Of a stretch of DNA of 50,407 nt, positions 7,897 to 49,335 are shown in pieces. Position 1 is the first letter of the stretch. Each line of letters starts with the position of its first letter. The notes under the pieces were generated by a model that saw nothing but the letters and a program-made list of their open reading frames with translations, ran no database searches and was not told the origin of the DNA. The position numbers and the translations under genes were made by a program. This DNA comes from an uncultured Anaerolineales bacterium (GTDB lineage: Bacteria > Chloroflexota > Anaerolineae > B4-G1 > SLSP01): positions 32,239 through 82,645 of the forward strand of contig CAZHBB010000001.1 of NCBI GenBank assembly GCA_964530185.1, in the 5' to 3' direction.

Positions 7897-7982
7897 TCGT
7901 GCCTAGCCTCCGATACTGATTTTTTTTCTCGTGCCCCAGGGGTCCACGTGTCCCTGCCGTCGGGAGGATCCGCCGGGGGTGA

Positions 7983-9428: not shown

Positions 9429-9445
9429 AGATGCCTCCTCGGCTG

Positions 9446-10621: not shown

Positions 10622-10668
10622 GCGTTCGCTGCCCCCCGATTCTCAGAATCATGCGCTCGATCGACGTC

Positions 10669-10696
10669 ATTGTAGTCAGACGCCTCATGGGGGCAA
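10669..10696 (-). promoter_or_regulatory. Putative sigma70 promoter of the leftward catabolic operon
   Basis: Minus-strand TTGCCC-16 nt-TACAAT about 48 nt upstream of the DegT start. Confidence 0.35.
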
Positions 10697-10929
10697 ATAG
10701 ACAGCAGTTTGCGGGCTGAGGGACCACTGTTGGGGTTCAGAGAGATGAACGGGGGCGTCAGGTGAAGTGGGCTGCACTCATGGGGTACTGGGGGACAGAA
10801 GTTCCCGCAATGTCCGGCCCGGTATAGTCATGGCACCGGGGAATTACGCAGTCATGCGGCTGGACGTCACGGGCGTTGTGATTAGACTTGGTTCGGTCAT
10901 AAAGCCGGATGTGTCCAGAGGAGGCTGGT

Positions 10930-30887: not shown

Positions 30888-30897
30888 GGGGTATGGC

Positions 30898-32112
30898 ATG
30901 GCCAAAGTTGGGATCGATATCGGTTCTCATCGTGTGCTCGCAATTGTGGGGGACGTTGATGAACAGGGGCGTGTGCAGATCTTGGGAGTTGGAGAGGCTC
31001 CCGCCCGTGGCATCAAGAAAGCCGTGGTCATCAATGTGGCCCAGGCGACGGCGTCCATCGCGCAGGCGGTGGAGCAGGCCGAGCAGAGCAGCGGGTTTCA
31101 GATCGAGCGCTGCTATGTGGGGGTGAGCGGGGCGCATATCTCCTCCCGAAACAGCACCGGCGTGGTAGGGGTTTCGCGTCGGGATCGGGGCATTGTGTCT
31201 GACGACGTGGATCGTGTATTGGAGGCGGCCGGGGCGATTGTATTGCCCGAAAACCAGGAACTTATTCACATTCTTCCGCGCACTTATACGGTCGATGGAC
31301 AGGATGGCGTGCGCAATCCATTGGGTATGCACGGGTTCCGCCTGGAGGTGGAGGCCCACGTTGTCATGGGATCGAGCACTGCACTGGAGAACCTCCGAAA
31401 ATGTGTGTCCGAGGCCGGGCTGCAGGCCACGGACCTCGTATTGACCAGTTTGGCGGCCGGTGATGCGGTGTTGACAGAGAGTGAGAAGGAGATGGGGGTC
31501 GTGCTGGTGGACATTGGGGAGGGGACCACTGACATCGCGATCTTCATCGACGGAACCGTCTGGCACACGAAATCGCTGCCGATGGGCGGAGAGTATGTCA
31601 CCAACGACGTGGCGATTGGTCTGCGTCTGCCCTCGCAGGTAGCCGAGCGTATCAAGTTGAGCCATGGGCATGCCCTCTCTAATCAGGTCGCGGAGGACGA
31701 GCGGTTCACCGTGGCCCCCTATGGGGAGGGTAATCCTATCCCAATCCCTCGCTGGAAACTGGCCGAGATCATTCAAGCGCGCTGCGAGGAGATCCTGGAG
31801 AACGTCCAGCAGGAGATCAAGCGTTCGGGTTACGACGGACTGCTCCCGGCCGGGGTTGTGTTGTGTGGCGGGACGGCCAGACTCCCAGGGCTCCGTGACC
31901 TGGCGCGCTCGATCTTTGATCTGCCTGTCCAGATCGGGATCCCGCGCGAGATCACAGGGTTGACCGATAAAGTAAGTGGTCCAGATGGAGCAGTGGCGGT
32001 CGGGCTGGTCCGGTGGACGCCCCTCTGGGAAGAGGGAGGTGGATGGCGGACCGTGCGGACGCCATGGGCCAAACGGTTTTTTGGGTGGTTCCGCAACTTG
32101 TTGCCTGGATGA
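30898..32112 (+). CDS. ftsA: Cell division protein FtsA
   Basis: GIDIGS, P.GM.G.RLE, DIG.GTTD, AE.IK, GVVL.GG and a C-terminal amphipathic helix (WAKRFFGWFRNLL). Confidence 0.95.
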   Translation: MAKVGIDIGSHRVLAIVGDVDEQGRVQILGVGEAPARGIKKAVVINVAQATASIAQAVEQAEQSSGFQIERCYVGVSGAHISSRNSTGVVGVSRRDRGIVSDDVDRVLEAAGAIVLPENQELIHILPRTYTVDGQDGVRNPLGMHGFRLEVEAHVVMGSSTALENLRKCVSEAGLQATDLVLTSLAAGDAVLTESEKEMGVVLVDIGEGTTDIAIFIDGTVWHTKSLPMGGEYVTNDVAIGLRLPSQVAERIKLSHGHALSNQVAEDERFTVAPYGEGNPIPIPRWKLAEIIQARCEEILENVQQEIKRSGYDGLLPAGVVLCGGTARLPGLRDLARSIFDLPVQIGIPREITGLTDKVSGPDGAVAVGLVRWTPLWEEGGGWRTVRTPWAKRFFGWFRNLLPG

Positions 32113-32275
32113 GTGCGGTGAGTTGGAAAAGTCGTAAAGCGATATCGTCTGTGGGTAGGGGTGTAGAGGAGGGATGCATATGCAGGGACAATGGTCGTCA
32201 GCGGGACGAGACAGGAGACGACGCAATTCATCGGGTAAGCGGAGGACAAATTCTGGGATGTTAGGAGGTGTTGAG

Positions 32276-33355
32276 ATGGCAGGATTGGCAGAGAACTTCG
32301 CGCAGATTCGTGTGATTGGTGTTGGAGGGGGTGGCAGTAACGCCGTCAACCGTATGATTCAGGAGGGACTTCAGGGTGTCGAGTTCATCGCGGTCAATAC
32401 TGATGCCCAGGCCCTGATGCTCTCTCAGGCTCCGACCTGTCTGCGGATTGGCGATACCGTCACCCGTGGACTGGGTGCAGGGGGAGATCCAGAGCAGGGC
32501 CGCAAAGCCGCCGAGGAGTCCCAGGACGAGATCCGCGAGGTGCTCCAGGGCTCCGACATGGTCTTCATCACTGCCGGGATGGGTGGGGGCACCGGCACCG
32601 GTGCAGCTCCTATCATTGGTCAGATTGCCAAGGAGGAGGTCAAGGCCCTGACCATCGGCGTGGTTACCCGTCCATTTACCTTCGAGGGGGCCAAGCGCGC
32701 GCGGGTGGCGGCCGAGGGGATTGAGGCGCTCAAACAGGTGGTGGATACGCTTATCGTGATCCCCAACGACCGTCTGCTCGAGATCACTGAGAAGCGTGTG
32801 AGCCTGACCGATGCTTTCACCCTGGCGGATGACGTGCTGCGTCAGGGTATCCAGGGGATCACGCAGGTCATTACTATCCCAGGTCTCATCAACCTTGATT
32901 TCGCCGATGTCAGGTCAATCATGTTGGGCGGCGGTGCGGCGCTTATGGCGGTTGGGCGTGCCTCGGGCGAGAACCGCGCCGTGGAGGCTGTCCAACAGGC
33001 CGTGTCCAGCCGGCTGCTGGATATTACGATCGATGGTGCCCGTGGCATTCTGCTGAATATCACCGGCGGCCCATCCCTGGGGCTGCACGAGGTGAATGAG
33101 GCCGCAACCATGATCCGGGAGACCGCACACCCGGATGTGAATCTCATCTTCGGTGCTGTCATCGATGAGTCGATGGGGGATGAAATCAGCATTACTGTGA
33201 TCGCCACCGGCTTCGCCAATGACGGAGAGCCCGAGGCGTCCCGTGCACCTGTCAGTACGGTCGCCCATCGGCGTGCAGAACGGGTAGATCTTTACAGCAG
33301 CCAGACGATCGACCGCGAGAACATCGAGATCCCAGCCTTCCTGCGACGCCGTTGA
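32276..33355 (+). CDS. ftsZ: Cell division protein FtsZ
   Basis: [30 protein letters not shown] and C-terminal IPAFLRR. ATG 32276 follows AGGAGG. Confidence 0.97.
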
Positions 33356-34023: not shown

Positions 34024-34971
34024 TTGGGGGAAGGTGTTGTGATCGAGACAGTTGGGTTGACAAAGCGGTTTGGGTCTCTGGAGGCCGTCAAGGGCCTGAC
34101 TCTGCATGTGGGACGCGGAGAGGTCCTGGCGTTGCTTGGGCCCAACGGTGCCGGTAAGACGACGACCGTGCGTATGCTTAGCGCGATCCTGCGCCCAACG
34201 GAGGGTAAAGCCTGGGTGGCGGGCTACGAGGTGACCGAGGACAGTCGTGCGGTCCGTCAACGTGTGGGTGTGTTGACCGAGGCACCGGGCCTCTACACAC
34301 GGATGACGGGCCTTGAGTACCTGAAGTTCTTCGGTTCCATGTGGTCCCTCGATCCCGCGATACTGAACGCCCGTATCGCTGAGCTTGCCGACGCCTTTGG
34401 GATGTCCGACGCGCTCAATCGCCGCCTGGGGACCTACTCCAAGGGGATGCGGCAGAAGATCGCCCTGATGCGGGCCATGGTGCATGACCCCCCCGTGCTG
34501 TTGCTGGACGAGCCCACCTCGGCACTCGATCCCCAAAATGCCCGCCTGGTGCGCGATGCCATTCTCCGCCTGCGCTCAGAGTCAGCTCGGGCGATCGTGG
34601 TGTGTACCCACAACCTGGCCGAGGCCGAGGAGTTGTGCGACCGTCTAGCCGTGATCCGTCAGGGGAGGCTCGTGGCGCTAGGGACTCCGGTGGAGCTCAA
34701 GGCACAGGTCTTGGGTCCACCATTGATGGAGATACGCTACGTGGAAACTCTCCAAGATGACCTTCGTGGCTTTGTGGGGCGTTTCGCTGAGGTGGTCGCC
34801 GCAGGGCAGGGATGGGTGCGCTACCGCACCGACGACCCCGAACACTCGAACCCAGCCCTGTTGAAGGCGTTGGTGAGCCAGGGGGTGTCGGTGCACACAC
34901 TGACTGAGGTTCCTCAGACGCTGGAGGCGGCTTACCTCAAGCTGATGCAGGATGGCGCAGATGCCGCTTGA
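34024..34971 (+). CDS. ABC-2 type exporter ATP-binding protein
   Basis: Walker A GPNGAGKTT, signature YSKGMRQK, Walker B LLLDEP and H-loop CTH. Confidence 0.92.
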   Translation: MGEGVVIETVGLTKRFGSLEAVKGLTLHVGRGEVLALLGPNGAGKTTTVRMLSAILRPTEGKAWVAGYEVTEDSRAVRQRVGVLTEAPGLYTRMTGLEYLKFFGSMWSLDPAILNARIAELADAFGMSDALNRRLGTYSKGMRQKIALMRAMVHDPPVLLLDEPTSALDPQNARLVRDAILRLRSESARAIVVCTHNLAEAEELCDRLAVIRQGRLVALGTPVELKAQVLGPPLMEIRYVETLQDDLRGFVGRFAEVVAAGQGWVRYRTDDPEHSNPALLKALVSQGVSVHTLTEVPQTLEAAYLKLMQDGADAA

Positions 34972-36445
34972 TCTTCGGTTGAGGGATCGCACTGCGCAGG
35001 GCCTGGGAAAACTGTGGGAGGCGCTGCTTCCTGTATTCCGCGTCACGCGACGCGAGGTCCAGGACAGCCTCAGGGATTGGCGTATCATCGTGCCCATTGT
35101 GCTCCTGGTGCTGGGGTTCCCCGTGTTGGCCAACTTCGTCGCCCGACGTGGGCTGGTTTTTGTGAGCCAATATGGTGCCAATCTGGTGGCTGAGCGGTTA
35201 TTTCCTTTCCTGATCCTGGTGGTGGGCTTTTTCCCCAGCACCTTTGCCCTGGTAATCGCCCTGGAGGCGTTCGTGGGCGAGAAGGAGCGGCGTAGCCTCG
35301 AGCCCCTCCTCACTACGCCCCTGAGTGATGTGCAGCTCTATCTGGGGAAGCTGTTGGCCTCCACCCTGGTACCGATTGGAGCCAGCTATCTGGGCATCAC
35401 CGCCTGCATTGTGCTGCTGAGGGTCTCCGTCGGGTGGTGGCCTGGGCTTTCCATGTTGCTATTGGCGTTCGCGCTCTCTGCTGTCCAGGCGTTGGTGATG
35501 GTCGCCGCCGCGGTCATTGTCAGCAGCCAGTCGACCAGTGTGCGAGCGGCCAACCTGCTGGCCAGTTTCATCATCGTGCCTATGGCTCTGTTGTTGCAGG
35601 TGGAGGCAGGCCTCCTGCTCTACGGCGACGAGCGGGCGCTCTGGCTGGTGACGCTGGCCCTCTTCGTCGTGAGCGTGTTGCTGGTCCGGCTGGGGACACG
35701 TCTCTTCAGCCGTGAGCGGCTGTTGGGTGAGGACCTGGATGAACTGGACCTGCTGAGCGGGATGCGGTTGCTGTGGCAGGCCGCCCTGCCAGAGGCGGGT
35801 GTGCGTCATATCTACCGGCGGGACCTGCCCCGGCTCCTCAAGAACCTGCGTTGCGAGCTGCTTCTTACGGGGATCGTGTTGATCGGCGGCAGCTTGGCAG
35901 TCGGGGGCTGGTTGTCGGCACGTTTCCCGCTTCCGGCGGTCGTCCTGGAGATGGATACGTCGCTGGATCTGGAGACCTTGCAGACGCAGGTCTCGCAGGT
36001 GGGATTGCTTCCGGCGTTGACGCCTTCGGCCATCCTCTGGCACAACGTCAGGAGCCTGGGCGTGACCCCCTTGTTGGGACTTCTCTCCCTGGGCACTTTG
36101 GCGCAGCTTCTGCTGTTGGTGCCGGGGACTGTTATTGCCTATCTGGGTTTCCAGATGGCCCGCGTGATCTCCCAACCGTGGATGCTGCTGGTCATCACGG
36201 TGCTCCCACATGGTCTCTTCGAGCTTCCCGCAGCGGTGCTGGCCACCGCCCAGGCCACGCGGGTGGGCACCATTCTGCTTCGCTCTCCGGAGGAGGGAGG
36301 CGGCGTCCTGGGCATCGCCCGCGAGCTGGGTCACTTTGTGAAGCTCTTTGTCATCGTGGTGTTGCCCCTGCTGACGATTGCGGCTCTCATCGAGGCATCC
36401 GTGACCCCGCGGTTGTTGATCTGGTGGCTAAGCCGCGGTGGGTAG
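34952..36445 (+). CDS. ABC-2 permease fused to a SpoIIM (DUF95)-like domain
   Basis: N-terminal half has GEKERRSLEPLL.TP...LYLGK. C-terminal half has IL.HN, LPHGLFELPA and AALIEA.VTP. Confidence 0.78.
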   Translation: MAQMPLDLRLRDRTAQGLGKLWEALLPVFRVTRREVQDSLRDWRIIVPIVLLVLGFPVLANFVARRGLVFVSQYGANLVAERLFPFLILVVGFFPSTFALVIALEAFVGEKERRSLEPLLTTPLSDVQLYLGKLLASTLVPIGASYLGITACIVLLRVSVGWWPGLSMLLLAFALSAVQALVMVAAAVIVSSQSTSVRAANLLASFIIVPMALLLQVEAGLLLYGDERALWLVTLALFVVSVLLVRLGTRLFSRERLLGEDLDELDLLSGMRLLWQAALPEAGVRHIYRRDLPRLLKNLRCELLLTGIVLIGGSLAVGGWLSARFPLPAVVLEMDTSLDLETLQTQVSQVGLLPALTPSAILWHNVRSLGVTPLLGLLSLGTLAQLLLLVPGTVIAYLGFQMARVISQPWMLLVITVLPHGLFELPAAVLATAQATRVGTILLRSPEEGGGVLGIARELGHFVKLFVIVVLPLLTIAALIEASVTPRLLIWWLSRGG

Positions 36446-38074: not shown

Positions 38075-38147
38075 GGGGGCGTAGTGTAGTGGTTAACATG
38101 CCGGCCTGTCAAGCCGGAGATCGCGGGTTCAAATCCCGTCGCTCCCG
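38075..38147 (+). tRNA. tRNA-Asp(GTC)
   Basis: Acceptor stem GGGGGCG/CGCTCCC, D-loop AGTGGTTA, anticodon arm CCGGC-CTGTCAA-GCCGG, T-loop TTCAAAT and discriminator G. CCA is not encoded. Confidence 0.96.
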
Positions 38148-38156
38148 CAGATGATG

Positions 38157-38202: not shown

Positions 38203-38407
38203 GGGTTTACGCTACTCCCATCACCTGGACAGGCAGCAACGCTGGCAGGGATGATCTGGCTTACACGCCCTTTTCAGCAGCGGTGATGCCTTCTCGGTGG
38301 GTCAAGCTTGTGTTACGGTGTCGGCTGTAGCCCGGCTTCCTCTTGAGAGAGCCACCACCGCCGTCGTGTGGGACTCGTGCGCCACTACGAGAGACCCCGA
38401 ACGGGTG

Positions 38408-38476: not shown

Positions 38477-39142
38477 ATGGACAATTGGGGTACACCTGTC
38501 GCAACGTCGATCGCATCCGTCGCCCTAAACCTGGTGATCGGGCTGGTCCTCAGCTTGCTGGTCGCCTGGTACTACGAGGCCTACGGTCAATCTCTGGCTA
38601 ACCGGCGCACTATGGCACGCCTGCTGCCGGCGTTGACCATCACGACCGGGTTGGTCATCACCATCGTCAAATCGTCGTTAGCGCTCTCCCTGGGACTGGT
38701 GGGGGCACTCTCTATCGTGCGTTTCCGCACAGCGATCAAGGAACCGGAAGAACTTCTCTTCCTGTTCATCTCGATCGCCATTGGACTCGGCGTGGGGGCC
38801 GACCAGCGTCTGGCGACGATTGTGGGCGTGGGGATCCTGTTGGGCTATATGGCGCTGCGGATGTTGTTTCAACGTACGTCACAGATCCACAATCTCTACT
38901 TGAACCTGGTGCTCACTGAGGGGGAACGCTCCCTCTTCAATCAGGTGAATGCCTGTCTGTTAGATCACGTGAAGGCTGTGGACTTCCGCCGCCTAGACAG
39001 TCGAGAGGGGACACTGGAGCTGACCTACTTCATCGACTGTGCGAAGCCGGAGGCGATCGATGCCCTCATGGAGGACCTCAAGCGCAGGTTCTCCGTCATC
39101 GAAGCCAGTTTTCTCCAGAGAGATTCCAGATTGGGGGACTGA
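38477..39142 (+). CDS. DUF4956 family membrane protein
   Basis: Hallmark SLALSLGLVGALSIVRFRTAIKEP, several TM helices and a soluble C-terminal domain. Confidence 0.85.
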   Translation: MDNWGTPVATSIASVALNLVIGLVLSLLVAWYYEAYGQSLANRRTMARLLPALTITTGLVITIVKSSLALSLGLVGALSIVRFRTAIKEPEELLFLFISIAIGLGVGADQRLATIVGVGILLGYMALRMLFQRTSQIHNLYLNLVLTEGERSLFNQVNACLLDHVKAVDFRRLDSREGTLELTYFIDCAKPEAIDALMEDLKRRFSVIEASFLQRDSRLGD

Positions 39143-40675
39143 TTGCGGATCGGGAGATCGAGCCGGAACCCCTCCGATTTGTGGCTCTATTTAGGGGTGA
39201 TTGGACTTTCCTTCGTGGCCGGGTTGCTCTTCGCACAGTGGGGTTGGTCCCGTGGAATAGAGGAGTTCACCCAGGCGCTGTTTCAGCATCCAGGCCTCGT
39301 GTGGGCCGCCTATCGCCAGCGCGCCACCGTGCCCACCCTGCATTTCGATCTGGCCTTCCAGGACGCTCAGCGGCTCGCATCGCGTCGTGCGCAGGCGCTG
39401 ACCTCGGGCGTGAATCTGGTAGGGGAGGATGATTACGTGCCCGCGCAGGTCAGTTGGGGGGACGCGCGGACGGATGTGAGCATCCGGCTGCCCCAGGCCA
39501 GTGCCTCCTTGCTATCTGGGACGCGCTGGCCGCTGGAGTTAGCGGCCACGCAGTCGGAGCCAGTCTTAGGGATGGCTAGCGCCTTGCTCCTGCCTGCCCG
39601 CGAGGATGCTCTGGTGACTGCGGGCTACCTGACGATGCTGCGCGACGCTGGTTTCCCGGTGGTGGATCGCCACTTCGTGCGTGTGACTTTCAACGGCGTG
39701 GACTGGGGAGTGTATACGATGGAATCGCGCGTGGCTCCGGAGGGGATGTCGTCCGCTGCTGTGATGGTCTCATTCGACACCCGTGAGTTCCTGGCTGCCC
39801 CTGTTCTGGATCGAGCGAGTGGTTTTGCCTATGCCCAGGTCGAGGTCTCATCCCCCGCCCTGGCGGAAGAAGAAGAACTGGTCCTCTCTGCCGAGGTGGC
39901 CCAGCTCCTGCGGGCGATTGCCCAGGGGGAAGCCGCCCCCACGCGGTATTTCGATGCCGACGCGCTGGCCCGTTTCCTGGGGATAACCACGCTGTGGTAC
40001 GGCTCTCCCCTGTTGGACTGGCGAACGGTGCGATGGGCTTACGACCCGGGAAGTCAGACGTTCACACCCATCGGCGTAGGCACGGTTCCAGATCCGACGT
40101 ACGCCTGGCCCCAGGTTTTCACCGACGATCCTTCTTTACAGCGGGCGTACGCCCAGGACTTGCGCAGCCTGAGCGAGCCAGCGGTCCTGGAGTCCCTGGA
40201 CCATACGGCGTTGGAGGCGCTGCGTTTGGCGGTGGGTGCAGATCTGGGGTATCCGCCGCCGCCGTGGGAGATGTTGTGGGAGCACCAGCAGGAGATGCGG
40301 GCTGCTCTCTCCCCCTCACGCACGCTCTTCGCTACGGCTGACGAATATGAGGGGACCCTGCGCATTGCGCTCGAGGCCCTGTTGCCCTTTCCCGTGGAGC
40401 TCCTGGGCCTTGACTTCGGTGACTGGGGGCAGATGCCCATGGATGTCTCGTGGGTGGATCCGAGCACGCGAGCGGCGCTGGTTGAGGCCACGTCGAGTGT
40501 TGTGCTGCGGGCACGGTTGAATGAGACGCCCATGCCGTTCCTTCTGACTATCCCGCTGGAGGTGATCCCGGTTGAGGCCCGGGACGCCATGGGTCGGCTC
40601 TCGCTGGTGACCCGCATTTGGGGACTGGATGGGCTCATCGCGGTCCCGGTGAGCTGGGGGTCAGAGCCGTGGTAG
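39143..40675 (+). CDS. Degenerate CotH-like protein (probable pseudokinase), membrane anchored
   Basis: N-terminal TM. Aligns by eye with the 41394 protein (PTL..D, FV.V..NG...G.Y..E, FD...LA.FL, SLVTRIWGL) but lacks the K, HN and D motifs. Confidence 0.6.
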   Translation: MRIGRSSRNPSDLWLYLGVIGLSFVAGLLFAQWGWSRGIEEFTQALFQHPGLVWAAYRQRATVPTLHFDLAFQDAQRLASRRAQALTSGVNLVGEDDYVPAQVSWGDARTDVSIRLPQASASLLSGTRWPLELAATQSEPVLGMASALLLPAREDALVTAGYLTMLRDAGFPVVDRHFVRVTFNGVDWGVYTMESRVAPEGMSSAAVMVSFDTREFLAAPVLDRASGFAYAQVEVSSPALAEEEELVLSAEVAQLLRAIAQGEAAPTRYFDADALARFLGITTLWYGSPLLDWRTVRWAYDPGSQTFTPIGVGTVPDPTYAWPQVFTDDPSLQRAYAQDLRSLSEPAVLESLDHTALEALRLAVGADLGYPPPPWEMLWEHQQEMRAALSPSRTLFATADEYEGTLRIALEALLPFPVELLGLDFGDWGQMPMDVSWVDPSTRAALVEATSSVVLRARLNETPMPFLLTIPLEVIPVEARDAMGRLSLVTRIWGLDGLIAVPVSWGSEPW

Positions 40676-41379
40676 CGTTTGACGTGACGCACGCTGCCCA
40701 GCCTCGCTATGAGGTCAAGATCCCGCTGCCAGCGGCGCGGTTGCCGGAGATACAGGCCTGGATCCGCGTGCATCCGGCACACTGGCGTGTGGCCTATCCT
40801 GAGCGCCAGGTCAACAACATCTACTTTGACTCGCCAGATTATGCCGGACTGAACGCCAACCTGTCGGGGATCGCAGAGCGGGCCAAACTGCGGCTGCGCT
40901 GGTATGGGACGGTACTCTCCCATGTTGAAGGTGCGCATTTGGAACTCAAGCGCAAACACGGGATGGTGGGCTGGAAAGAGGCGGTAGCCCTAAAAGTATC
41001 GGTTGAGCTTACCTCGCTCACATGGGGCGCCTTCTGTGCCCTCTTGCGTTCGAGCCTGGAACCCGTTGCGCGGCGCTGGCTGGACAGTTTCCCTGTCCCT
41101 GTGCTTCTCAACCACTACCAACGCGCCTATTATGTCACGCTGGATCGCCGTGTCCGCCTCACCGTGGACACCGCCCTGCGGGCCTACACCCAGGGCCTGC
41201 GGGGGCGACCTAACCTGGACCGCCCCGTGTCTATGCCGGTGGAGGAGTGGGTGGTGGTGGAGATTAAGGCACTTAACCGTCCGGTGGACTTCCAACGGCT
41301 GGTGGAGGTGCTGACGGACTCTCCGGTGCGCATCCAGCGCTTCTCGAAGTACGTGCACGGGATGCTGGCCTTCCCATGA
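40669..41379 (+). CDS. VTC-domain (CYTH/triphosphate tunnel) polyphosphate polymerase-like protein
   Basis: RYEVK, VNNIYFDSP, R.KLRLRWYG, LELKRK, Y.R.Y, RLTVD, VVEIK and FSKY. GTG 40669 overlaps the upstream stop. Confidence 0.87.
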   Translation: MVAFDVTHAAQPRYEVKIPLPAARLPEIQAWIRVHPAHWRVAYPERQVNNIYFDSPDYAGLNANLSGIAERAKLRLRWYGTVLSHVEGAHLELKRKHGMVGWKEAVALKVSVELTSLTWGAFCALLRSSLEPVARRWLDSFPVPVLLNHYQRAYYVTLDRRVRLTVDTALRAYTQGLRGRPNLDRPVSMPVEEWVVVEIKALNRPVDFQRLVEVLTDSPVRIQRFSKYVHGMLAFP

Positions 41380-41393
41380 GGGGGATGTGACGG

Positions 41394-44057
41394 GTGTTTG
41401 AGGGAGGATCGGGGTTTGAGATGGGGGGAGCGGGTGGGCGCCGGCCAGGGGTGCCTCGGCCTCCTGTTCTGATGACGCTGGTGATCCTGGCTTTCGTCGC
41501 CGGAGCGATCTCCGCGCGCCTTGTCTGGCCTGCCACAGGGACACCGGCTTCCTCGCTGGCGGTGGTCACAGCGTCACCCATCCCGCCGACGGCTACTCTG
41601 CCGGCGACCCCAACCCCGACGACGCCAGACATCGACGGAGCGCTACCCACACTCTATATTGACATCGCCCCCGATGACTTTGCCAGGATCGCTGCCCGAC
41701 GTGAGGAGGCGTTGGAGCAGTGGATCCTGCTGGCGAGCGATGCAGACTTCGTGCCTGCGACTGTGCGTCTTGGCCAGGGGGATCCTGTCCCTGTGCGGCT
41801 ACGGCTCAAGGGCGATTGGGCCGACCACTTCGCGCGCGATAAATGGTCGTACCGGGTGGAGGTACAGGGGGACCACGCCCTGTTGGGGATGCGTGTCTTC
41901 TCATTGCAGGATCCGTCGACGCGCACTTACCTCAACGAGTGGCTTTTCCTGGAGAACCTGCGGGAGGAGGGGATCCTGGCGGTGGGATATCGCTTCGTCC
42001 AGGTGGTCCAGAACGGGCGCGCCATGGGGATCTACGCCCTGGAGGAAGGGTTTTCCAAGGAGCTGTTGGAGTCTCAGGGGCGTCGGGAGGGCGTTATCCT
42101 GCGCTATGACGAGGATCTGCTCTGGCGGTATTGGGTGGCCTACCTTGATGATGCCGTGGTGCCCCGCGGCGTGATGGATTTTCACTTGATTGATGAATTC
42201 CAGTCGGGTAAAGTGCGCAGTGATCCTCTGCTCTCCGCACAGCGCACGGTGGCCATTGGCCGTTGGCGGGCATGGGAGGAGGGAAAGCTACCGACATCCC
42301 AGGTGTTCGATCTACCCACGCTGGCGAAGTTCCTGGCACTGACCGATGTCTGGGGGGCCAAGCATGCCCTGCGCTGGCACAATCTGCGTTTCTACTACAA
42401 CCCGATCACCACCCGGCTGGAACCAATCGCCTTTGATACGCAGGCTTTGGAGGGTGGGGCTGAGGTTGTGTCCTCGGAGCTGAGTGGCCTGCAGTGGGCG
42501 CTGGCCCGTGGGGACAGCCATCTACAGCGTGCGTACGTGCAGGAGCTTTGGCATTTCTCTCAGCCCGACTATCTGGAGAAGATCCAGTCGCGCTTGGGGG
42601 CGGACTTTGAAGCGTTGCGCGCGGCCCTGATGTCAGAGTTCGGTGGGCAGCGAACCCCTGCAGGCGCCGAGGTGCTTGCACCGCCCTGGACGGTGCTGGC
42701 ACAGCGACAGGCTGCCCTACGAGAGATGCTCTCGCCCATTCAGACGGTCTATGCTTATCTCCCAGCCGACGCGCCTACCACTACGCTGCAGATCGATGCC
42801 GGAAACCTCATGGATTTGCCCGTTGAGGTCGTCGGCGTGCAGGTGGGAGAGGTATGGTTTCCCGCCACACGTATCTCATCCACCTTACGGGCCTCCGCCG
42901 ATGCATTGGTCCTGCCCCCACTCCCCGCGCAGGCGACGGTGATGCCCTATGCCCGGCTGTACGTGCCTGTGGCGCTTCCCCAGCCTACGCCCCCTGCGGA
43001 TCTACCCACACCGAGTCTGGTCACACGGATCTGGGGGCTCACGCAGACCGTGACGCAGCCAGTGGCGTTGAGCTATCCCGCCTCTCTCATCTCCGGACCC
43101 ATGCCGGTTCCTCCGACGCTGGAGGCTGTCCTGGCACAGCACCCGTACCTTGAGGTGGTAGATACGGAGGAACCGATGCTGATGATCCCACCCGGGACCT
43201 GGGAGGTCAGCGAAAGCCTGATCTTGCCAGAAGGATATGGCCTGCGTCTCGAACCCGGCACGACGTTGCGTTTCGCTCCTCAGGCTTTCCTGTTGGCGCA
43301 TGGCGGCCCTCTTCTCTTTGAGGGGCAAGAGGATGCGCCGATCGTGCTGCGGCCAAGCGAGGAGGTGTGGCGCGGTGTCGTTGTCCTGGGCGCGGACATT
43401 CCGTCGGTCTGGCGACACGTGGTGGTGGAGAACACCGATGTCATCACCACCCCAGGGTGGACACTGACCGGTGGCATCACGTTCTATGAGAGCCCTGTCC
43501 GTATTCAGAGCTCGCGTTTGCTTGGGATGCGGGCCGAGGACGGGATAAATGTGGTCCGGACGCGCTTCGAGATCGTGGACACGGAGTTCGCCGCCATGGC
43601 CTCCGATGCCCTGGATGCTGACTTCTGCCAGGGCGTGATCGAACGCTCCCTCTTCTACGATGTTGGGACTGATGGGCTGGACGTGAGTGGCAGCACGGTG
43701 TATGTGCGCGATGTGCAGATGCACAATGTGGGCGACAAAGGTATTTCGGTGGGCGAGGCGAGCTCTCTAACAGGGGAGCATCTGGAGATCATTGGTGCGT
43801 CTTTCGGTGTGGTGAGCAAGGATCTTTCGCGGGTGGTGTTGCGTGATGTGACGATCGCCGAGGTGCGTGTGGCGGGATTGGCGGCCTATACCAAGAAGCC
43901 CGCCTATGGCCCAGCTTCGATCGAGGCGCAGGACGTGACCTTTGTGGATGTCCCCGCGGAGCGGCGGACGCTCGTTCAGACCCATAGTTGGATCGACCTG
44001 GAGCACACCCGCATTTGGGGAGAGGACGTAGACGTCGAGGCTCTGTACAGTCAATGA
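41394..44057 (+). CDS. CotH kinase family protein with C-terminal right-handed beta-helix
   Basis: TM/signal plus a P/T linker, then RLKGD..DH, KWSYRV, FSLQ.P, NEW, GIYALEE and H...W.N.RFYYNP....EPIAFD. Beta-helix repeats EDGIN, SDALDADF, DGLDVSGS and DKGISVGE. Confidence 0.82.
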   Translation: MFEGGSGFEMGGAGGRRPGVPRPPVLMTLVILAFVAGAISARLVWPATGTPASSLAVVTASPIPPTATLPATPTPTTPDIDGALPTLYIDIAPDDFARIAARREEALEQWILLASDADFVPATVRLGQGDPVPVRLRLKGDWADHFARDKWSYRVEVQGDHALLGMRVFSLQDPSTRTYLNEWLFLENLREEGILAVGYRFVQVVQNGRAMGIYALEEGFSKELLESQGRREGVILRYDEDLLWRYWVAYLDDAVVPRGVMDFHLIDEFQSGKVRSDPLLSAQRTVAIGRWRAWEEGKLPTSQVFDLPTLAKFLALTDVWGAKHALRWHNLRFYYNPITTRLEPIAFDTQALEGGAEVVSSELSGLQWALARGDSHLQRAYVQELWHFSQPDYLEKIQSRLGADFEALRAALMSEFGGQRTPAGAEVLAPPWTVLAQRQAALREMLSPIQTVYAYLPADAPTTTLQIDAGNLMDLPVEVVGVQVGEVWFPATRISSTLRASADALVLPPLPAQATVMPYARLYVPVALPQPTPPADLPTPSLVTRIWGLTQTVTQPVALSYPASLISGPMPVPPTLEAVLAQHPYLEVVDTEEPMLMIPPGTWEVSESLILPEGYGLRLEPGTTLRFAPQAFLLAHGGPLLFEGQEDAPIVLRPSEEVWRGVVVLGADIPSVWRHVVVENTDVITTPGWTLTGGITFYESPVRIQSSRLLGMRAEDGINVVRTRFEIVDTEFAAMASDALDADFCQGVIERSLFYDVGTDGLDVSGSTVYVRDVQMHNVGDKGISVGEASSLTGEHLEIIGASFGVVSKDLSRVVLRDVTIAEVRVAGLAAYTKKPAYGPASIEAQDVTFVDVPAERRTLVQTHSWIDLEHTRIWGEDVDVEALYSQ

Positions 44058-45331
44058 AAGGTAGGTCGATCTGGCAACTGGGTTTTGCCCCCTTGCTTCT
44101 CCTTCTGCTCGGTGCCTGTGCGCCCCCCCGTCGCGCGCTCTATGCCGACATCGTCGCCTGGCTGCGCGCCCATGCCCTGAGTTCGGAGTGTGTGGCCGTG
44201 CCGATGGAGGCAGTTGACCTCTTTGAGCCATGGTGCCCTCTGGGGCTGGCGCCGGATCTGACCACGTTTCGCCTGCTGGCGCATCTGGATGAGCATCGGC
44301 CAGACTATGTGCTGGTCCCACGCAGTGTCGGCTGGGATGGCGTCCGTGCACAGCCCTGGTTCCGTGAGCGTTACCATCAGGTCTACGATGCGGCATCCCC
44401 TTATGATGGGGCCACACCGTTGAGGCTCTATGCCTATACCCCGTCACCTTTCGATGTCGGCGAGCGCAAGACTGTGGAGTCGGTGTTTGTGGATGTGCCG
44501 GTCGAGCTGCGGGGATATCGTCTCTCCCTTCCTCCCTCCTTGCCTCTCATCATACCCGGCGAACCCCTTCGGCTGACTCTGTTCTGGCATGAGGAGGTCC
44601 TTGGCGCCCTTCCCACACTGAGCGTACGACTATGGCTCGAAAATGTGCACGATGGCAGAGTGTGGGGACAGGTGAGTATGCGGGGGGAACCCGGCTTGGA
44701 CCCCTTGGGTAAGGGAGACGAGAGGATCACGCGCCACGTGCTACCGATCCCAGAGGATATCCCGACAGGGAGGTATGCCTTGATGGTGAGCCTGAGGCGT
44801 GCTAATGACCGCCCTGTGATGGTGACCAGCGGGGAGGCGAACGGCAGCACTGTGGAGCGGCTGAGATTAACCACGTTGCAACAGGTGCCGAGCGTGGGCA
44901 AGGATCGTCCGCCAGTGGAGTATCCGGTCTTCTTCGAGCTCGGCGGGTCGATTGAGTTGCTGGGCTACGATGCCCCGGTCCGCGCTGCGCCAGGCGAGAC
45001 TGTGCGGTTGACTTTGCTATGGCATGTGTGGGAGCCCGTCGTCCGGGATTACAAAACGTTCGTGCATCTCTATGATCCGGGGGGAAACGTGGTGGTTCAG
45101 GATGACACCAAGCCGTTGGATTGGGCCTATCCCACGCTGCAGTGGCAGCCCGGCGATTATGTGCGTGATACGCACCTTTTGCTCCTGCCTGGGGACCTTC
45201 CCCGTGGGGACTACATGATAGCTGTGGGGATGTACGAAGAGACGAGCGGTGAGCGGCTGTCGGTGACCGATGTCGAAGGAAGCGTGTTGCCCGAGGGACG
45301 GATCTTCTTACACGAGCTACAGGTCCGGTGA
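44054..45331 (+). CDS. Putative lipoprotein with tandem Ig-like domains of the kind found at the C-terminus of Chloroflexota membrane glycosyltransferases
   Basis: ATG 44054 (ATGA overlap) and lipobox LLLGA-C. Two repeats of L.GY......PGE...LTL.W ... P.D.P.G.Y, plus FVHL.D..G..V.Q.D..P.....PT..W.PG. Confidence 0.6.
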   Translation: MKGRSIWQLGFAPLLLLLLGACAPPRRALYADIVAWLRAHALSSECVAVPMEAVDLFEPWCPLGLAPDLTTFRLLAHLDEHRPDYVLVPRSVGWDGVRAQPWFRERYHQVYDAASPYDGATPLRLYAYTPSPFDVGERKTVESVFVDVPVELRGYRLSLPPSLPLIIPGEPLRLTLFWHEEVLGALPTLSVRLWLENVHDGRVWGQVSMRGEPGLDPLGKGDERITRHVLPIPEDIPTGRYALMVSLRRANDRPVMVTSGEANGSTVERLRLTTLQQVPSVGKDRPPVEYPVFFELGGSIELLGYDAPVRAAPGETVRLTLLWHVWEPVVRDYKTFVHLYDPGGNVVVQDDTKPLDWAYPTLQWQPGDYVRDTHLLLLPGDLPRGDYMIAVGMYEETSGERLSVTDVEGSVLPEGRIFLHELQVR

Positions 45332-45340
45332 GTGGTGTCG

Positions 45341-46786
45341 ATGAAGAAGTATGTCTATCCGCTGGGGTTGTTGGTTCTGTTGCTGCCCCTTTTGATGCTC
45401 TCCGATCGCCTGGAGCGTGCGTCAGGACCATCGCCCGAGCCTGGCACGCTGCGCCCCCCGCGTATCTCCCCGATGCCGGGGAGCTATGATCGCAGTGTAA
45501 CGGTGCGCCTGCGTCCTAATGAGTCTCGCCGGCGGATCATCTTCACTACCAATGGGGCTCTGCCCATTCTCTCCTCCCCTGAAGCCTCTGGCACGATGAC
45601 CAGTACAGGGGTTTTCTATGATCGCCCCCTCCGGCTGGATATGGATTTTCCCAATGTAACGGTTTTACGTGCCGTTGAAGTCGCCGGTGATCAGGTAGGG
45701 CCTCCCCTGGAGGCTGTCTACGCTGTGGGCATGGCAGGGGATCTGCCGATCTTGTCGTTGACCGTTGACCCTGAGGATCTGTGGAGTGGCGCCCGTGGGA
45801 TCTTCACCAACCCTACCTGGCGGGGACGCGAATGGGAACGACCAGTCTTTGTGGCATTTCTGCCTGCAGAGGGGGAGGTGGCTTTTGCGACGTCGGCCGG
45901 GCTCCGGGTGGATCAGACAGCCCCGGTGGCAGCACCAAAGTACGCACTGCGCCTGTATTTCCGCACGTCGTATGGTGCGGCGCGGCTGGCATTTCCCTTG
46001 TTTCCCTCTGACCCGCCGCAGCTTGAGCAGGGCCAGGGGTATCAGCGGCTGTTGCTTCAGGCCGGGGATCTGACACCCACCTGGACACTGCTGCGTGATC
46101 AGATAGTGTCAGAGATCGCGTTCGATCTGGGCCTGCCTGCCGCACGAGGTTGCTTCGTGCGGCTCTTCATCAATGGTGAGACGTGGGGGATCTATCGGCT
46201 GACCGAGCGCGTAGATCGCTTCTTCTTAGAGGAACACGATGGGTCTCGCTCCGTCGATATCCTCCAGGATGGCAGGGTACGTGAGGGATCCGATGAGGCA
46301 TGGAACGCATTGATCGCCTGGGCTGCGACTCATGATTTGGCCGATCCGCAGGTCTACGCTCAGGCACGGTCTCAGATCGACCTGGCCAACTTCCGTGACT
46401 GGGCCCTCTTGCAGCAATATTTCGGCTTCCCAGCGGATGCACTGTACGCCGTGCGCCCCGACGGTGGACGATGGCGCTGGGTCTATGTGGGAGGGGGGAC
46501 CTCTCAGTCGCGGAATGACTTTGCAAGGCTTCAGCGGGCATTGCTGAGGAATCAGGAGTACCGCGCCGGTGCTGCCCGACGGGCCAGGGCACTGCTGGAT
46601 ACCTCTCTCAGTCCAGGTGCCATAGCAGATTGTCTGGCAGAGGCTACGGCCTCGCTGGCACGCGACTTTGCCTTTGAGCGCGCGCGGTGGCCCAATATCG
46701 CGGCCCTGGACGCTCAGGTGACCGCGCTGTCTGCTGGCCTGGAAGCCAATCGGATGCGCCTGCAGAACTCCCTACAGGATCAATGA
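45341..46786 (+). CDS. CotH-family protein with N-terminal Fn3-associated/chitobiase-C-like domain, catalytic motifs degenerate
   Basis: Signal/TM, then P.ISP.PG.Y and I.FTTNG..P, LPILSL, GREWERP, K..LRLYFR..YG, LRD and LFING..WGIY.L.ER. The DW..NN and D.D motifs are absent. Confidence 0.7.
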   Translation: MKKYVYPLGLLVLLLPLLMLSDRLERASGPSPEPGTLRPPRISPMPGSYDRSVTVRLRPNESRRRIIFTTNGALPILSSPEASGTMTSTGVFYDRPLRLDMDFPNVTVLRAVEVAGDQVGPPLEAVYAVGMAGDLPILSLTVDPEDLWSGARGIFTNPTWRGREWERPVFVAFLPAEGEVAFATSAGLRVDQTAPVAAPKYALRLYFRTSYGAARLAFPLFPSDPPQLEQGQGYQRLLLQAGDLTPTWTLLRDQIVSEIAFDLGLPAARGCFVRLFINGETWGIYRLTERVDRFFLEEHDGSRSVDILQDGRVREGSDEAWNALIAWAATHDLADPQVYAQARSQIDLANFRDWALLQQYFGFPADALYAVRPDGGRWRWVYVGGGTSQSRNDFARLQRALLRNQEYRAGAARRARALLDTSLSPGAIADCLAEATASLARDFAFERARWPNIAALDAQVTALSAGLEANRMRLQNSLQDQ

Positions 46787-49335
46787 CGTAGCACCACCGG
46801 CAGGTAGGTCCGGTGGGTATGCCCAAGCACCCCGTAGAGGCCGAGGTAGTGGATATCCGCCTCTAGATAACCTGGGAGCTGCATTTGCGGTTGAATTCCC
46901 TCTGTCACCCAGGCGTGGGCTTCAAGCCGGTAGAGCATGGGCATCGTCACAGGTAACCCGCTTGCTGGATACCCCAGGATAAGGCGCAGCGGATGGGTGA
47001 AATATCCTGGCGGAGTGCCGTCAAGAGGCGTCGCGTTCAGGGTGAAGAAGTGGTTGATCCCCTGGAGATCGCCTTGCGCCTCGTGAGTGGTCGTGTAGGA
47101 GAGCGTGAAGGTCGTGTCCGCTTCGACGGTGTTCTCCGAGACGCGAAGCAGTGTGAAATGATCTGGGTAGGCTAACCACAGTGCACCGCCTTCCGGGCCA
47201 ATTGTAGCTGAAGTGGAGGGGAGTGGTGTTGGCGTAGGAGTGGGGAGGATGGCAAAACGGGCGAAGAAGATGTCAGCTTGCCCTGCTTTATGGCCCTGGA
47301 TTGGAGCCTGGAGCGGGAAATCGAATGAAGTGGTCGCACCAGTGACGTGGACCATCCAATTTGGATCAACGACGAGACGCCATCCGCGGTCGTCAGCGCT
47401 CCCACCAAGGTAGGAGCTATAGAGAAGTACTCCATCATTGCCATCCAAGACAGTTAGAAATGCTTCCATCTCCCCACCATAGTGAGGTTGTAGGGCCGCG
47501 TAAGTGGGAAAATTCGGGGACGTGGTGTCCCCGGTGACATAGACGTGATGTCCGCTATCTACCGCCAGATCCCACGCCCACTCGCGTTTACTGCCTCCCA
47601 GGTAGGTAGAGAAGACCAGGTGATCACCCGCTGGGGATAGTTTAGTGACGAAGGCCTCGTAATAACCGTTGTATTCCAGGTCGAACCCCCCAACGGTTGG
47701 GAAATCCGTGGAGATCGTGTATCCCGTGACATAGGCAGCTCCGGTCTCGTCAATGTCAATACCCCAACACTCATCCCTGTTGCTGCCCCCCAGAAAGGTC
47801 GCGTAGAACATCTGGTTGTGCCAGGGGTCAAGTTTAAAGACCAGACAGTCGTCCCAGTCACCGCCGTAGGTGCTTTGAAAGGGGTTAACAGTGGGAAAGT
47901 CCGGCGAGGAAGTCATGCCTGTCCCGTAGACGATGCCCTGGTCATCGACGGCCAGACGGAACACTTGATCCCGCTGCGGGGCGCTAATGAGAGTCGAGTA
48001 GAGCATGGTACCGTCGGCGCTAAATATAGTAATAAATCCATCCTCTTCGTCGGAGCCGAAGGTTGCTGATCTCCAGGGGTTGAGTAGGGGAAAATCGTCT
48101 GAGTAGACTTCTCCTCCCAGGTAGACACGACCGAGATGGTCCAGTTTAATGTCGTTGACCTCCTCACCTCGCGTGCCCCCCAGGAAGGTAGAGAAAATGA
48201 GCTTTCCATCCGCGTCCAATTTAACCAGGTAGGCGTCCTCATACCCGGCAAATCCTGGTTGCCAGGCGTCCTTGATAGGGAAATCCGTAGAGAAGGTCTC
48301 TCCAGCCACATAAGCGTTACCAGCTTCATCTATGACGATGGCATTGCCCTGGTCGCCGCTTCTTCCGCCGAAGATCGTGACATACACGAGGTTGCCTGAG
48401 GTATCCAGCTTGGCGACAAAAACATCAGAATCACCAGCATACTGTCCAGTGGAGAGCCCGGGAAAGTCAGAGGAATTGGTGACGCCACTGATGTAGGTAT
48501 TGTTCTGTTGGTCAAGGGCGATAGACCATCCTTCATCCTTGGCACTACCGCCAAGGTAAGTGGCGTAAATGAGGACAGGATCGATGATCAATGGGCGCGT
48601 GGGATCGAAAGGGCCACGAGCGGCAAAACCGTAGGTCCCGTCATCCAGTAGTTTGAAGACGATGGTGACGGCCCTTCGCTGCCCATTGAACTCCTGATAG
48701 GCTGCGGGGATGCGCTCTAGGAGGGTACTGCCACCCGGCAGGTCGACACGCAAAGTCTGGCCCCCGTCGGCGAGCGACAGGGACTGAACGCCCGTGTACC
48801 TGATGTGGATCTGGGTCAGGGATGCGCCGGCCTGGACTGTGAACTGGGATTTGAGCTTTCCCTCCTGGAAGGTGTAGCTCAGGTCAATGCCGTTGTAGAG
48901 GCCCTTGTAAGTGAGATGCCCGTAGATTGGTAGATCCGTCTGCCACTGATCCGGCTGGTTCCCGTGGTAGCTGTGGGCCAGTGCCCCGGTGGCTTGCTCT
49001 CCACGGAGCTGGACCGCTGGATTGGCGTCCACGAACTCTATCCCAACCTGGCCCTGAGACAAGAAACTGATCATACCGGTGGGGCTAAAGTGCATCTCGG
49101 GCACCACACCGAAGGTCTGATAGTGAGAACCCTCAGCGTAGGCGACGAAGTGCCCAGGGGACTTCCAGTCCCCCGGGGACTGGAAGTCCCCCAGGGACTG
49201 GAGCCCGCTCGCATTAGCAGTGGGGACCGCGTGGGAGGTGGGCGCGAGTGGAAATCGCAGCGCCACGGTGAAGGCGATCACAATTCCCAACATCAGGGCT
49301 TTCCCTGGGACATGTACACGGTGTTTGGACTCCAT
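46780..49335 (-). CDS. Secreted SBBP-repeat beta-propeller surface protein
   Basis: Signal peptide, N-terminal LY.GIDL.Y / P.AYQ / LIIDPVL domain, about seven Y.TYLGG...D....I..D..G..Y..G.T.S.DFP repeats, a PT linker and C-terminal YLPVVLRH. Confidence 0.85.
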   Translation of the reverse strand: MESKHRVHVPGKALMLGIVIAFTVALRFPLAPTSHAVPTANASGLQSLGDFQSPGDWKSPGHFVAYAEGSHYQTFGVVPEMHFSPTGMISFLSQGQVGIEFVDANPAVQLRGEQATGALAHSYHGNQPDQWQTDLPIYGHLTYKGLYNGIDLSYTFQEGKLKSQFTVQAGASLTQIHIRYTGVQSLSLADGGQTLRVDLPGGSTLLERIPAAYQEFNGQRRAVTIVFKLLDDGTYGFAARGPFDPTRPLIIDPVLIYATYLGGSAKDEGWSIALDQQNNTYISGVTNSSDFPGLSTGQYAGDSDVFVAKLDTSGNLVYVTIFGGRSGDQGNAIVIDEAGNAYVAGETFSTDFPIKDAWQPGFAGYEDAYLVKLDADGKLIFSTFLGGTRGEEVNDIKLDHLGRVYLGGEVYSDDFPLLNPWRSATFGSDEEDGFITIFSADGTMLYSTLISAPQRDQVFRLAVDDQGIVYGTGMTSSPDFPTVNPFQSTYGGDWDDCLVFKLDPWHNQMFYATFLGGSNRDECWGIDIDETGAAYVTGYTISTDFPTVGGFDLEYNGYYEAFVTKLSPAGDHLVFSTYLGGSKREWAWDLAVDSGHHVYVTGDTTSPNFPTYAALQPHYGGEMEAFLTVLDGNDGVLLYSSYLGGSADDRGWRLVVDPNWMVHVTGATTSFDFPLQAPIQGHKAGQADIFFARFAILPTPTPTPLPSTSATIGPEGGALWLAYPDHFTLLRVSENTVEADTTFTLSYTTTHEAQGDLQGINHFFTLNATPLDGTPPGYFTHPLRLILGYPASGLPVTMPMLYRLEAHAWVTEGIQPQMQLPGYLEADIHYLGLYGVLGHTHRTYLPVVLRH
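49157..49191. repeat. Perfect 35-bp palindrome (REP-like) inside the SBBP coding sequence
   Basis: GGGGACTTCCAGTCCCC-C-GGGGACTGGAAGTCCCC; the arms are exact reverse complements. Confidence 0.85.

Follow-up and report, generated by a model that had tools for sequence, protein, structure and literature searches.

The stretch of chromosomal DNA analysed here (the window; 50,407 nucleotides of contig CAZHBB010000001.1) comes from an uncultured member of the Anaerolineae whose assembly consists of 228 contigs and is 91.6% complete. At positions 38477-46786 of the window, six open reading frames (ORFs; g1-g6) follow one another on the + strand and encode, in this order, a DUF4956 membrane protein, a CotH-like protein, a VTC-domain protein, a CotH/beta-helix protein, a lipoprotein and a CotH protein (Table 1). 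Reading of the junctions finds all of them abutting, overlapping or short-spaced: the TGA stop codon of g1 ends at 39142 and the TTG start codon of g2 follows at 39143 with no spacer; the GTG start codon of g3 at 40669 overlaps the stop codon of g2 (40673-40675) by 7 nucleotides in the string GTGGTAG; a 14-nucleotide spacer with a GGGGGA run separates g3 from the GTG of g4 at 41394; g4 and g5 share an ATGA overlap, with the ATG of g5 at 44054; and a 9-nucleotide spacer precedes the ATG of g6 at 45341. The start of g1 (ATG 38477) is backed by 38 homologues with the identical first Met. An original prediction, made from the letters of the DNA, had described six same-strand genes with abutting or overlapping junctions, and the ORF and junction check bears this out; its inventory of the genes also stands, but not the sequence in which it listed them, with VTC directly after DUF4956 and the three CotH proteins together. 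Hidden Markov model searches with Pfam place DUF4956, VTC and CotH over their cut-offs in g1, g3 and g4/g6, respectively, in agreement with the domains first proposed, and no NCBIfam model reaches its cut-off with any of the six. The topology of all six, including transmembrane (TM) segments, was predicted by hydropathy.

Table 1. Features of the operon and of related DUF4956 fusions; positions refer to the window, to the protein (aa) or to the named locus.
Feature	Position	Strand	Basis or remark
tRNA-Asp	38075-38148		upstream of the promoter-like site and g1
Promoter-like site, candidate operon promoter	38226..38255	+	consensus scan 9/12; consensus match only
g1, DUF4956 membrane protein, 221 aa	38477..39142	+	Pfam PF16316
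g2, membrane-anchored degenerate paralogue of the g4 CotH-like domain, 510 aa, no beta-helix	39143..40675	+	
g3, stand-alone VTC-domain protein, 236 aa, predicted cytoplasmic Vtc4-type tunnel enzyme	40669..41379	+	Pfam PF09359
g4, CotH/beta-helix protein, 887 aa, predicted outward-facing; conserved partner	41394..44057	+	Pfam CotH, Beta_helix
g4 TM anchor	aa 25-44		followed by a disordered linker
g4 CotH kinase-fold domain	about aa 86-450		His324 at the catalytic-Asp position
g4 beta-sandwich	about aa 452-556		
g4 right-handed beta-helix	about aa 587-875		
g5, lineage-restricted lipoprotein, 425 aa	44054..45331	+	lipobox LLGAC
g6, secreted or anchored CotH-family protein, 481 aa	45341..46786	+	Pfam CotH
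DUF4956 with N-terminal signal-like segment and PF06439 (3-keto-disaccharide hydrolase / concanavalin-like)	L073:8637-10016; L087:879-2462; L089:8056-9453; L103:6602-7984		

The g3 product matches the Pfam VTC family with 91.3 bits against a cut-off of 23; VTC is its sole Pfam domain and it has no TM segment. An alignment of 84 VTC sequences contains 17 invariant columns (R13, E15, K17, Y52, K73, R75, R77, W78, K94, K103, R152, Y154, D167, E198, K200, S226 and K227), all 17 of which are present in g3, in keeping with the earlier description of a cytoplasmic VTC protein with its ExK and basic motifs intact. Single-sequence searches of the PDB with g3 and with g6 returned nothing usable and profiles were needed; the profile of the g3 family matches the catalytic domain of yeast Vtc4 (PDB identifier 3g3q, E 2e-9) and also Vtc2 and Vtc3. 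The RLRWYG motif, the ExK strand and the SK pair of the g3 family could be aligned with yeast Vtc4, the SK pair falling on 'FSKF' of Vtc4, where the non-catalytic Vtc2 has 'FSIF'. We take these aligned tunnel residues to be the catalytic residues of yeast Vtc4. An exhaustive VTC search returned 3058 clusters at E <= 0.001, and since the best 150 of the 3058 clusters all span only 129-321 aa, these relatives of g3 are stand-alone proteins; no fused VTC form occurs among these 150, and none came up in a search for longer proteins, the latter negative counting as weak evidence. A search of the genome shows that it encodes PPK1 and PPK2 elsewhere, and the VTC protein would thus be an additional, specialised or dedicated enzyme. 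On these sequence features, g3 is predicted to be a cytoplasmic polyphosphate (polyP) polymerase of the Vtc4 type.

The membrane protein encoded by g1 matches DUF4956 with 46.6 bits against a cut-off of 30.6; 8000 homologues were scored, and the nearest are named Anaerolineae. Several TM segments are predicted in g1, as the original prediction of a multi-TM protein had it. An AlphaFold2 model of low confidence (predicted local distance difference test, pLDDT, 61.7) shows five helices followed by a C-terminal beta-alpha-beta-beta-alpha-beta domain (ACT/ferredoxin-like), with the invariant basic motif SIVRFRTAIKEPEE placed between helices 3 and 4. Foldseek found no match at E <= 0.001 with this low-confidence model, and the weak matches are to ACT-like and MgtC C-domains (PDB identifier 2lqj, TMt 0.60; PDB identifier 3ibw, TMt 0.70). 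Prediction of a g1+g3 complex gave an ipSAE of 0.00 in both runs (alignments A1 and A2, no controls), which speaks neither for nor against binding. The orientation of the protein is suggested by long DUF4956 forms from Chloroflexota, of which four of six carry a PF06439 domain ahead of the membrane part and five of six have an N-terminal hydrophobic, signal-like segment preceding PF06439 or the membrane part. Because these elements precede the membrane part in the Chloroflexota relatives, the N-terminus of DUF4956 would lie outside the cell, and if the C-domain is cytoplasmic, a count of five TM helices is consistent with this. In that orientation, the invariant basic loop of g1 (R82, R84, K88) would be exposed at the cytoplasmic face, as the entry point for polyP.

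The third conserved component, the g4 product, combines a membrane anchor with a CotH kinase-fold domain, a beta-sandwich and a beta-helix. Its Pfam match to CotH (26.3 bits against a cut-off of 23.8) covers model positions 1-109 only, and its match to Beta_helix (25.8 bits) lies 0.1 bit under the cut-off of 25.9. The kinase fold is recovered with a family profile of 35 sequences, which matches residues 25-347 of Bacillus cereus CotH (PDB identifier 5jd9, E 1.3e-11), and with a confident AlphaFold2 model (pLDDT 87.5), the best Foldseek match of which is again CotH (PDB identifier 5jda, E 1.2e-12, TMt 0.65). The position of the catalytic Asp is occupied by His in 30 of the 35 family members (H324 in g4); the loop Asn (N330) is kept in 25, the metal-binding Asp (D348) is kept in 27 and replaced by Glu in 5, K150 is present in 33 and E217/E218 in all 35. 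The catalytic-Asp and metal-binding-Asp positions follow from B. subtilis D228/D251, which were mapped to D224/D247 of 5jd9, a mapping inferred from the equal 23-residue spacing; the D228Q and D251A mutants of CotH are inactive according to the accessible part of the source (PMC7821199). A single N-terminal anchor is predicted in 31 of the 35 members, following a basic stretch in g4, and Pfam finds CotH in 25, Beta_helix in 18 and the pectate-lyase-like Pect-lyase_RHGA_epim in 5 of them. The beta-helix domain is the best-conserved part of the family, with eight Asp and four Lys nearly invariant. No sequence-level match of the g4 family profile to a solved beta-helix was found in the PDB. By fold, the domain resembles GH87 glucanase, the AlgE4/AlgG epimerases, PL6 alginate lyases and GH28 enzymes, with phage tailspikes also among the matches (Foldseek, E 5e-6 to 1e-3), and these look-alikes act on polysaccharides, many of them anionic; it differs from the beta-helix polysaccharide enzymes, however, in having its own set of conserved Asp/Lys-rich motifs. 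The fused beta-helix, together with the polysaccharide genes that lie beside related cassettes (see below), suggests a glycan target and points away from the surface proteins that had been proposed as CotH substrates.

The other two CotH-like proteins of the operon have lost active-site residues. The g2 product is clearly paralogous to the N-terminal half of g4 (residues 1-560; BLASTP against g4, 28% identity over 483 aa, E 2e-30), matches no Pfam family at cut-off (CotH E 0.14) and has a TM segment at residues 13-31 after a basic stretch. The residues corresponding to K139, G140, H145, K150, E218, H324, N330 and D348 of g4 are all replaced in 3/3 g2 orthologues, and despite the loss of every residue checked, intact g2-type frames are found in 16 of 21 same-genus genomes. 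The g6 product, which has an N-terminal signal-like segment, matches Pfam CotH with 57.8 bits over model positions 32-184 only; in the alignment its catalytic-loop Asn and metal-binding Asp are both missing, with VYVGGG standing where relatives have WD. Its orthologue in another Anaerolineae locus (L026) is degenerate likewise; more distant relatives retain the Asn and the Trp-Asp, and the canonical CotH proteins of other cassettes keep the catalytic Asp, the loop Asn and the metal-binding Trp-Asp. Genes of the g6 type are present in 14 of the 21 same-genus genomes. The orthologues of g6 are mostly about 800-870 aa long, and that of L026 also carries CHB_HEX_C_1, Fn3_assoc and Flg_new_2; since g6 is about 350 aa shorter at its C-terminus and its frame ends 7 nucleotides inside the convergent neighbouring gene, this copy looks C-terminally truncated. 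The three CotH kinases proposed earlier are therefore not upheld, as active-site residues are lost in g2 and g6 and His stands for the catalytic Asp in g4: judged by their residues, at most one of the three proteins looks catalytic, and that one, g4, is not a canonical Asp-base kinase. The remaining gene, g5, matches no Pfam family, with a faint DUF4832 match below cut-off (E 0.095, 12.9 bits against 29.2). Its repeated C-terminal modules recur in the C-termini of GT39/PMT_2 glycosyltransferases; the search for homologues yielded only 25, of which 6 carry PMT_2, and its Atlas matches are to Chloroflexota hypothetical clusters only. We regard g5 as an accessory gene outside the core of the cassette. 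The outward-facing location first assigned to the CotH-like proteins and the lipoprotein agrees with the predicted anchors of g2 and g4, the signal-like segment of g6 and the lipobox of g5.

The co-occurrence and synteny that had been anticipated for these genes are strong. Among 201 sampled genomes of the phylum, 13 carry VTC (one of which, G038, is unpublished), 10 carry DUF4956 over cut-off and 9 carry CotH; all ten DUF4956 genes adjoin VTC on the same strand, and CotH adjoins the VTC-DUF4956 pair in eight of its nine genomes. The independent cases are few, as the ten DUF4956 genomes come from six genera. All three families are present together in 3 of 14 control genomes, viz., Bacteroides thetaiotaomicron, Corynebacterium glutamicum and Methanosarcina acetivorans. 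A cross-phylum scan with the DUF4956 alignment, restricted to one genome per species, found at least 596 loci, of which the best 80 were analysed by scoring their ORFs with our own profiles and counting those on the same strand within 5 kb. These 80 loci belong to Chloroflexota, Bacteroidota, Verrucomicrobiota, Planctomycetota, Myxococcota, Proteobacteria (including Pelagibacteraceae), Nitrospinota and one Woesearchaeota metagenome-assembled genome. VTC is present in 65 of them, a CotH-like gene in 68 and both in 58; the corresponding figures for the 54 loci flanked by 4 kb or more on each side are 50, 49 and 47. The commonest orders among the 80 are DUF4956/CotH-like/VTC (24 loci) and CotH-like/DUF4956/VTC (17 loci), and a CotH-like protein of the g4 type, over 700 aa in length, is encoded in 46. 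All six genes recur in the order of the window in one Anaerolineae locus (L026), and another locus (L025) has g1-g4. Thus, the linkage of DUF4956 and VTC is far beyond chance, and the core of the cassette is formed by three genes (g1, g3 and g4), to which g2, g5 and g6 are lineage additions.

Related cassettes have 158 contiguous ORFs beside them on the same strand, and we also scanned the nearest 101 of these. They include Wzy_C proteins (5), flippases (2), glycosyltransferases (7), MBOAT proteins (3) and AlgX (1), as well as inorganic pyrophosphatases (3), Metallophos phosphoesterases (2) and a NAGPA phosphodiester glycosidase (1); Pel, HlyD and TolC proteins are not found among the 101. The pyrophosphatases (PF00719; L043:14314-14970, L061:14111-14755 and L094:9217-9822) lie directly beside VTC and carry an N-terminal extension of 40-55 aa, and the Metallophos phosphoesterases are encoded within or beside the cassette in L057 and L095. 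In two Bacteroidota loci, a second tunnel protein, CYTH (PF01928; L049:10636-11514 and L088:10606-11481), is encoded between DUF4956 and the g4-type gene. A further locus (L022, G021:C1, 10817-12697, minus strand) has the order Cthe_2159 beta-helix protein/VTC/DUF4956/response regulator/histidine kinase with no CotH detected, in a small Dehalococcoidia-like genome with reductive dehalogenases nearby; kinship between its Cthe_2159 protein and the g4 family was considered, and no relation was found (hhalign probability 0.7%).

The gene set itself is already in print as uncharacterised accessory genes of pel loci. Gram-positive pel operons carry cotH, a poly-phosphate polymerase, DUF4956 and DUF4832 as contiguous accessory genes, according to the available sections of Whitfield et al. 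2020 (PMC7112168), and the gene list of Clostridium perfringens NELoc-2 includes VTC and CotH genes. For Streptococcus intermedius, the accessible portion of a recent study (mBio 2025, PMC12345266) reports that deletions of the DUF4956 and CotH homologues alter the Pel level and aggregation, suggests a role of the trio in phosphate metabolism and states that the trio was not found outside Pel loci. That trio (SIR_1594-1592) consists of the same three families adjoining on one strand as here, and a secreted CotH, a cytoplasmic VTC and a DUF4956 protein with a TM part and an ACT-like domain are common to both; the window differs from it in gene order, in having as CotH partner a His-variant with a beta-helix, and in the addition of two degenerate CotH paralogues and a lipoprotein. 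No pel genes are present in the 50-kb window and PelG was not found in the genome at its 91.6% completeness. The literature searched, supplementary figures aside, offers no biochemical function for the gene set, no His variant and no beta-helix fusion, which agrees with the original prediction, whose author knew of no biochemically characterised function for the set.

Comparison with better-known systems reveals both likenesses and differences. The tunnel domain of the eukaryotic VTC complex (Vtc4/Vtc3/Vtc1; PDB identifiers 3g3q, 7ytj and 8i6v) aligns, with its catalytic motifs, to the g3 family, and the complex provides a working analogy, as here too a membrane protein is genetically coupled to VTC and synthesis may be coupled to translocation. 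Unlike the eukaryotic proteins, g3 stands alone at 236 aa and has neither an SPX nor a TM domain. The fold of Bacillus CotH (PDB identifiers 5jd9 and 5jda), described as a protein kinase in the part of the publication at hand (PMC7821199), is shared by g4 according to both profile and structure, and g6 passes the Pfam cut-off. However, Bacillus CotH uses ATP within the cytoplasm of the mother cell, whereas the CotH-like proteins of the window are predicted to face outward; moreover, its catalytic Asp (B. subtilis D228 as mapped above) is replaced by His in g4, g6 has neither the Asn nor the D251 equivalent, and g2 has none of these residues.

Starting from the gene order and coupling, the domain identities, the residues kept and lost, the predicted topology and the conservation of the cassette, which are observed directly, we propose that polyP is synthesised at the membrane and leaves through DUF4956, and that g4 then employs it to modify an envelope glycan. 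The g3 enzyme would polymerise polyP from ATP at the inner face of the membrane, and g1, whose five helices are predicted to run from an outer N-terminus to an inner C-terminus, with the conserved basic loop and the ACT-like domain in the cytoplasm, would hold g3 at the membrane and move the polyP chain, or its phosphoryl groups, across. Anchored outside, g4 would hold an envelope polysaccharide by its beta-helix, and its kinase-fold domain would transfer phosphate or polyphosphate onto the glycan, possibly via the His that replaces the catalytic Asp. The g2 and g6 proteins would be non-catalytic CotH paralogues acting as scaffolds or allosteric partners, and g5 a lineage-specific lipoprotein accessory. 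Fam20A and Fam20C form a secretory pseudokinase-kinase pair. By analogy only, as the families are unrelated, the degenerate g2 is likewise encoded beside the conserved kinase-fold g4, with both predicted to lie outside the cytoplasm. Because every mechanistic step, viz., the polymerase activity, the g1-g3 contact, the export, the glycan target and the donor, is inferred, we hold this proposal tentatively and give it somewhat less than an even chance. A more specific form of it, in which a VTC-DUF4956 synthase-translocase feeds polyP to the His-variant CotH and the latter, with polyP in place of ATP and through a phospho-His intermediate, phosphorylates or polyphosphorylates an envelope polysaccharide held on the beta-helix, seems to us rather unlikely.

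Several observations weigh against this proposal. The g1 protein matches no VTC chain in sequence or fold, as compared with its poor model (pLDDT 61.7); DUF4956 is thus not detectably related to the Vtc TM domains, and the idea that it is a homologue of the membrane part of yeast VTC fails at this level of comparison. VTC occurs without DUF4956 in 3 of the 13 VTC-containing genomes (G013, G038 and G176), and CotH occurs without VTC in one genome of the phylum (G094) and, as the only one of the three families, in the B. subtilis control. No glycan or polysaccharide genes are found by Pfam on the operon strand within the window. Lacking the canonical catalytic Asp, g4 may be inactive. Lastly, an S. 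intermedius strain deleted for the VTC homologue (SIR_1593) still aggregated and made Pel, according to the accessible portion of that study (PMC12345266), which implies that VTC is not obligatory for the CotH phenotype under those conditions.

A different account keeps the phosphate inside the cell: VTC would make polyP or sense phosphate status with its product retained and not exported, DUF4956 would be a regulatory membrane protein resembling MgtC, with its ACT-like domain as the sensor of a metabolite, and the CotH-like/beta-helix proteins would bind or structure an envelope polymer, the genes being linked by shared regulation of glycan production. The architecture of DUF4956 lends itself to this, since MgtC/SapB/YhiD proteins also have about five TM helices and a cytoplasmic ACT-like C-domain, the C-terminal domain of DUF4956 resembles ACT and MgtC-C domains, and JGI labels some g1 homologues 'YhiD'; hhalign aligns the g1 family with the MgtC alignment over 138 colinear columns, but weakly (probability 11%, E 0.0028). 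A two-component system flanking the cassette in 3 of 7 phylum genomes with scanned VTC-DUF4956 loci (G184, G144 and G021) would suit such a role, as would the catalytic degeneration of g2 and g6, and cytoplasmic retention of polyP was proposed by the authors of a 2024 preprint in its available text (10.1101/2024.04.20.589940). However, the Pfam MgtC model (PF02308) does not match g1 even at E up to 10. The MgtC match of this genome lies on another contig, and the true MgtC genes of the relatives likewise lie elsewhere. The account also leaves unexplained why g4 retains nucleotide/phosphate-binding residues across phyla and why a dedicated polymerase exists beside PPK1 and PPK2, and we consider it unlikely. 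Members of the CYTH/TTM superfamily are hydrolases in the main, which raises the possibility that VTC is not a polymerase but a hydrolase of the triphosphate-tunnel type or some other TTM enzyme, with tripolyphosphate, PPPi or a nucleotide as examples of its substrate and the cassette handling short phosphates or a nucleotide-derived group. The pyrophosphatase beside VTC in three loci, the Metallophos protein in or beside the cassette in two and the second tunnel protein in the two Bacteroidota loci would be in line with it; against this, g3 matches the VTC family and not CYTH, and its SK position agrees with active Vtc4, where inactive Vtc2 has SI, and we hold this reading to be quite improbable.

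The original prediction itself held that three active extracytoplasmic CotH kinases phosphorylate surface proteins with polyP supplied by a split VTC synthase/translocase. The topology and the co-occurrence are as it predicted, and its precedent, Bacillus CotH, is a protein kinase by the same partial source (PMC7821199). In this form, however, it is very improbable, given that g2 has lost every conserved CotH-domain residue checked, g6 lacks the Asn and the metal-binding Asp and g4 has His for the catalytic Asp, and that the fusion partner of g4 and the neighbours of the cassette indicate glycans and not proteins. That unrelated genes have come together here by chance is hardly credible, as the junctions overlap or abut and the trio is present in 58 of the 80 best loci, from many phyla, and in 3 of 14 control genomes, so that the synteny data contradict it.

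ATP is absent outside the bacterial membrane, which raises the question of how kinase-fold enzymes could function once secreted. A polyP polymerase that is tied genetically, in many phyla, to a small membrane protein and outward-facing proteins of the CotH fold offers a concrete, testable answer. If the synthase-translocase reading is true, it would provide a general answer to how phosphoryl transfer can be driven outside the cytoplasm, and a first functional context for bacterial VTC-domain proteins and DUF4956. The window adds to what was known of the gene set in that a cassette of this kind occurs where Pel genes are absent, the partner conserved in it is a CotH His-variant that carries a polysaccharide-type beta-helix, and the extra CotH copies can be degenerate, non-catalytic paralogues; the fusions in some Chloroflexota relatives, which put the N-terminus of DUF4956 outside the cell, are likewise new here.

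Upstream of the operon lie the dcw cell-wall cluster, an ABC transporter, a class-III aminotransferase gene on the other strand and the tRNA-Asp gene, and the operon is closed by a convergent gene (46780-49335, - strand), which encodes a secreted 851-aa DUF7948 and SBBP beta-propeller-repeat protein with a PTPTPTP linker. In the upstream region, a single ORF at 34952-36445 joins an ABC-2 permease domain to a SpoIIM domain and adjoins an ABC ATPase gene at 34024-34971, and a 496-aa ORF after the dcw cluster (30859-32349, - strand) matches no Pfam family at E <= 1e-5. Further away, at 1193-12369, three sulfatases, an alpha-L-fucosidase, a BNR-repeat protein, a GFO/IDH/MocA oxidoreductase and a DegT aminotransferase form a gene cluster that looks like a locus for using sulfated fucose-containing glycans. 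Among the sequencing runs listed as containing sampled words of positions 38477-46786, none of which is of RNA, those labelled as hydrothermal vent metagenome (X4, 0.64) and as marine sediment metagenome (X6, 0.55) each contain at least half of these words.

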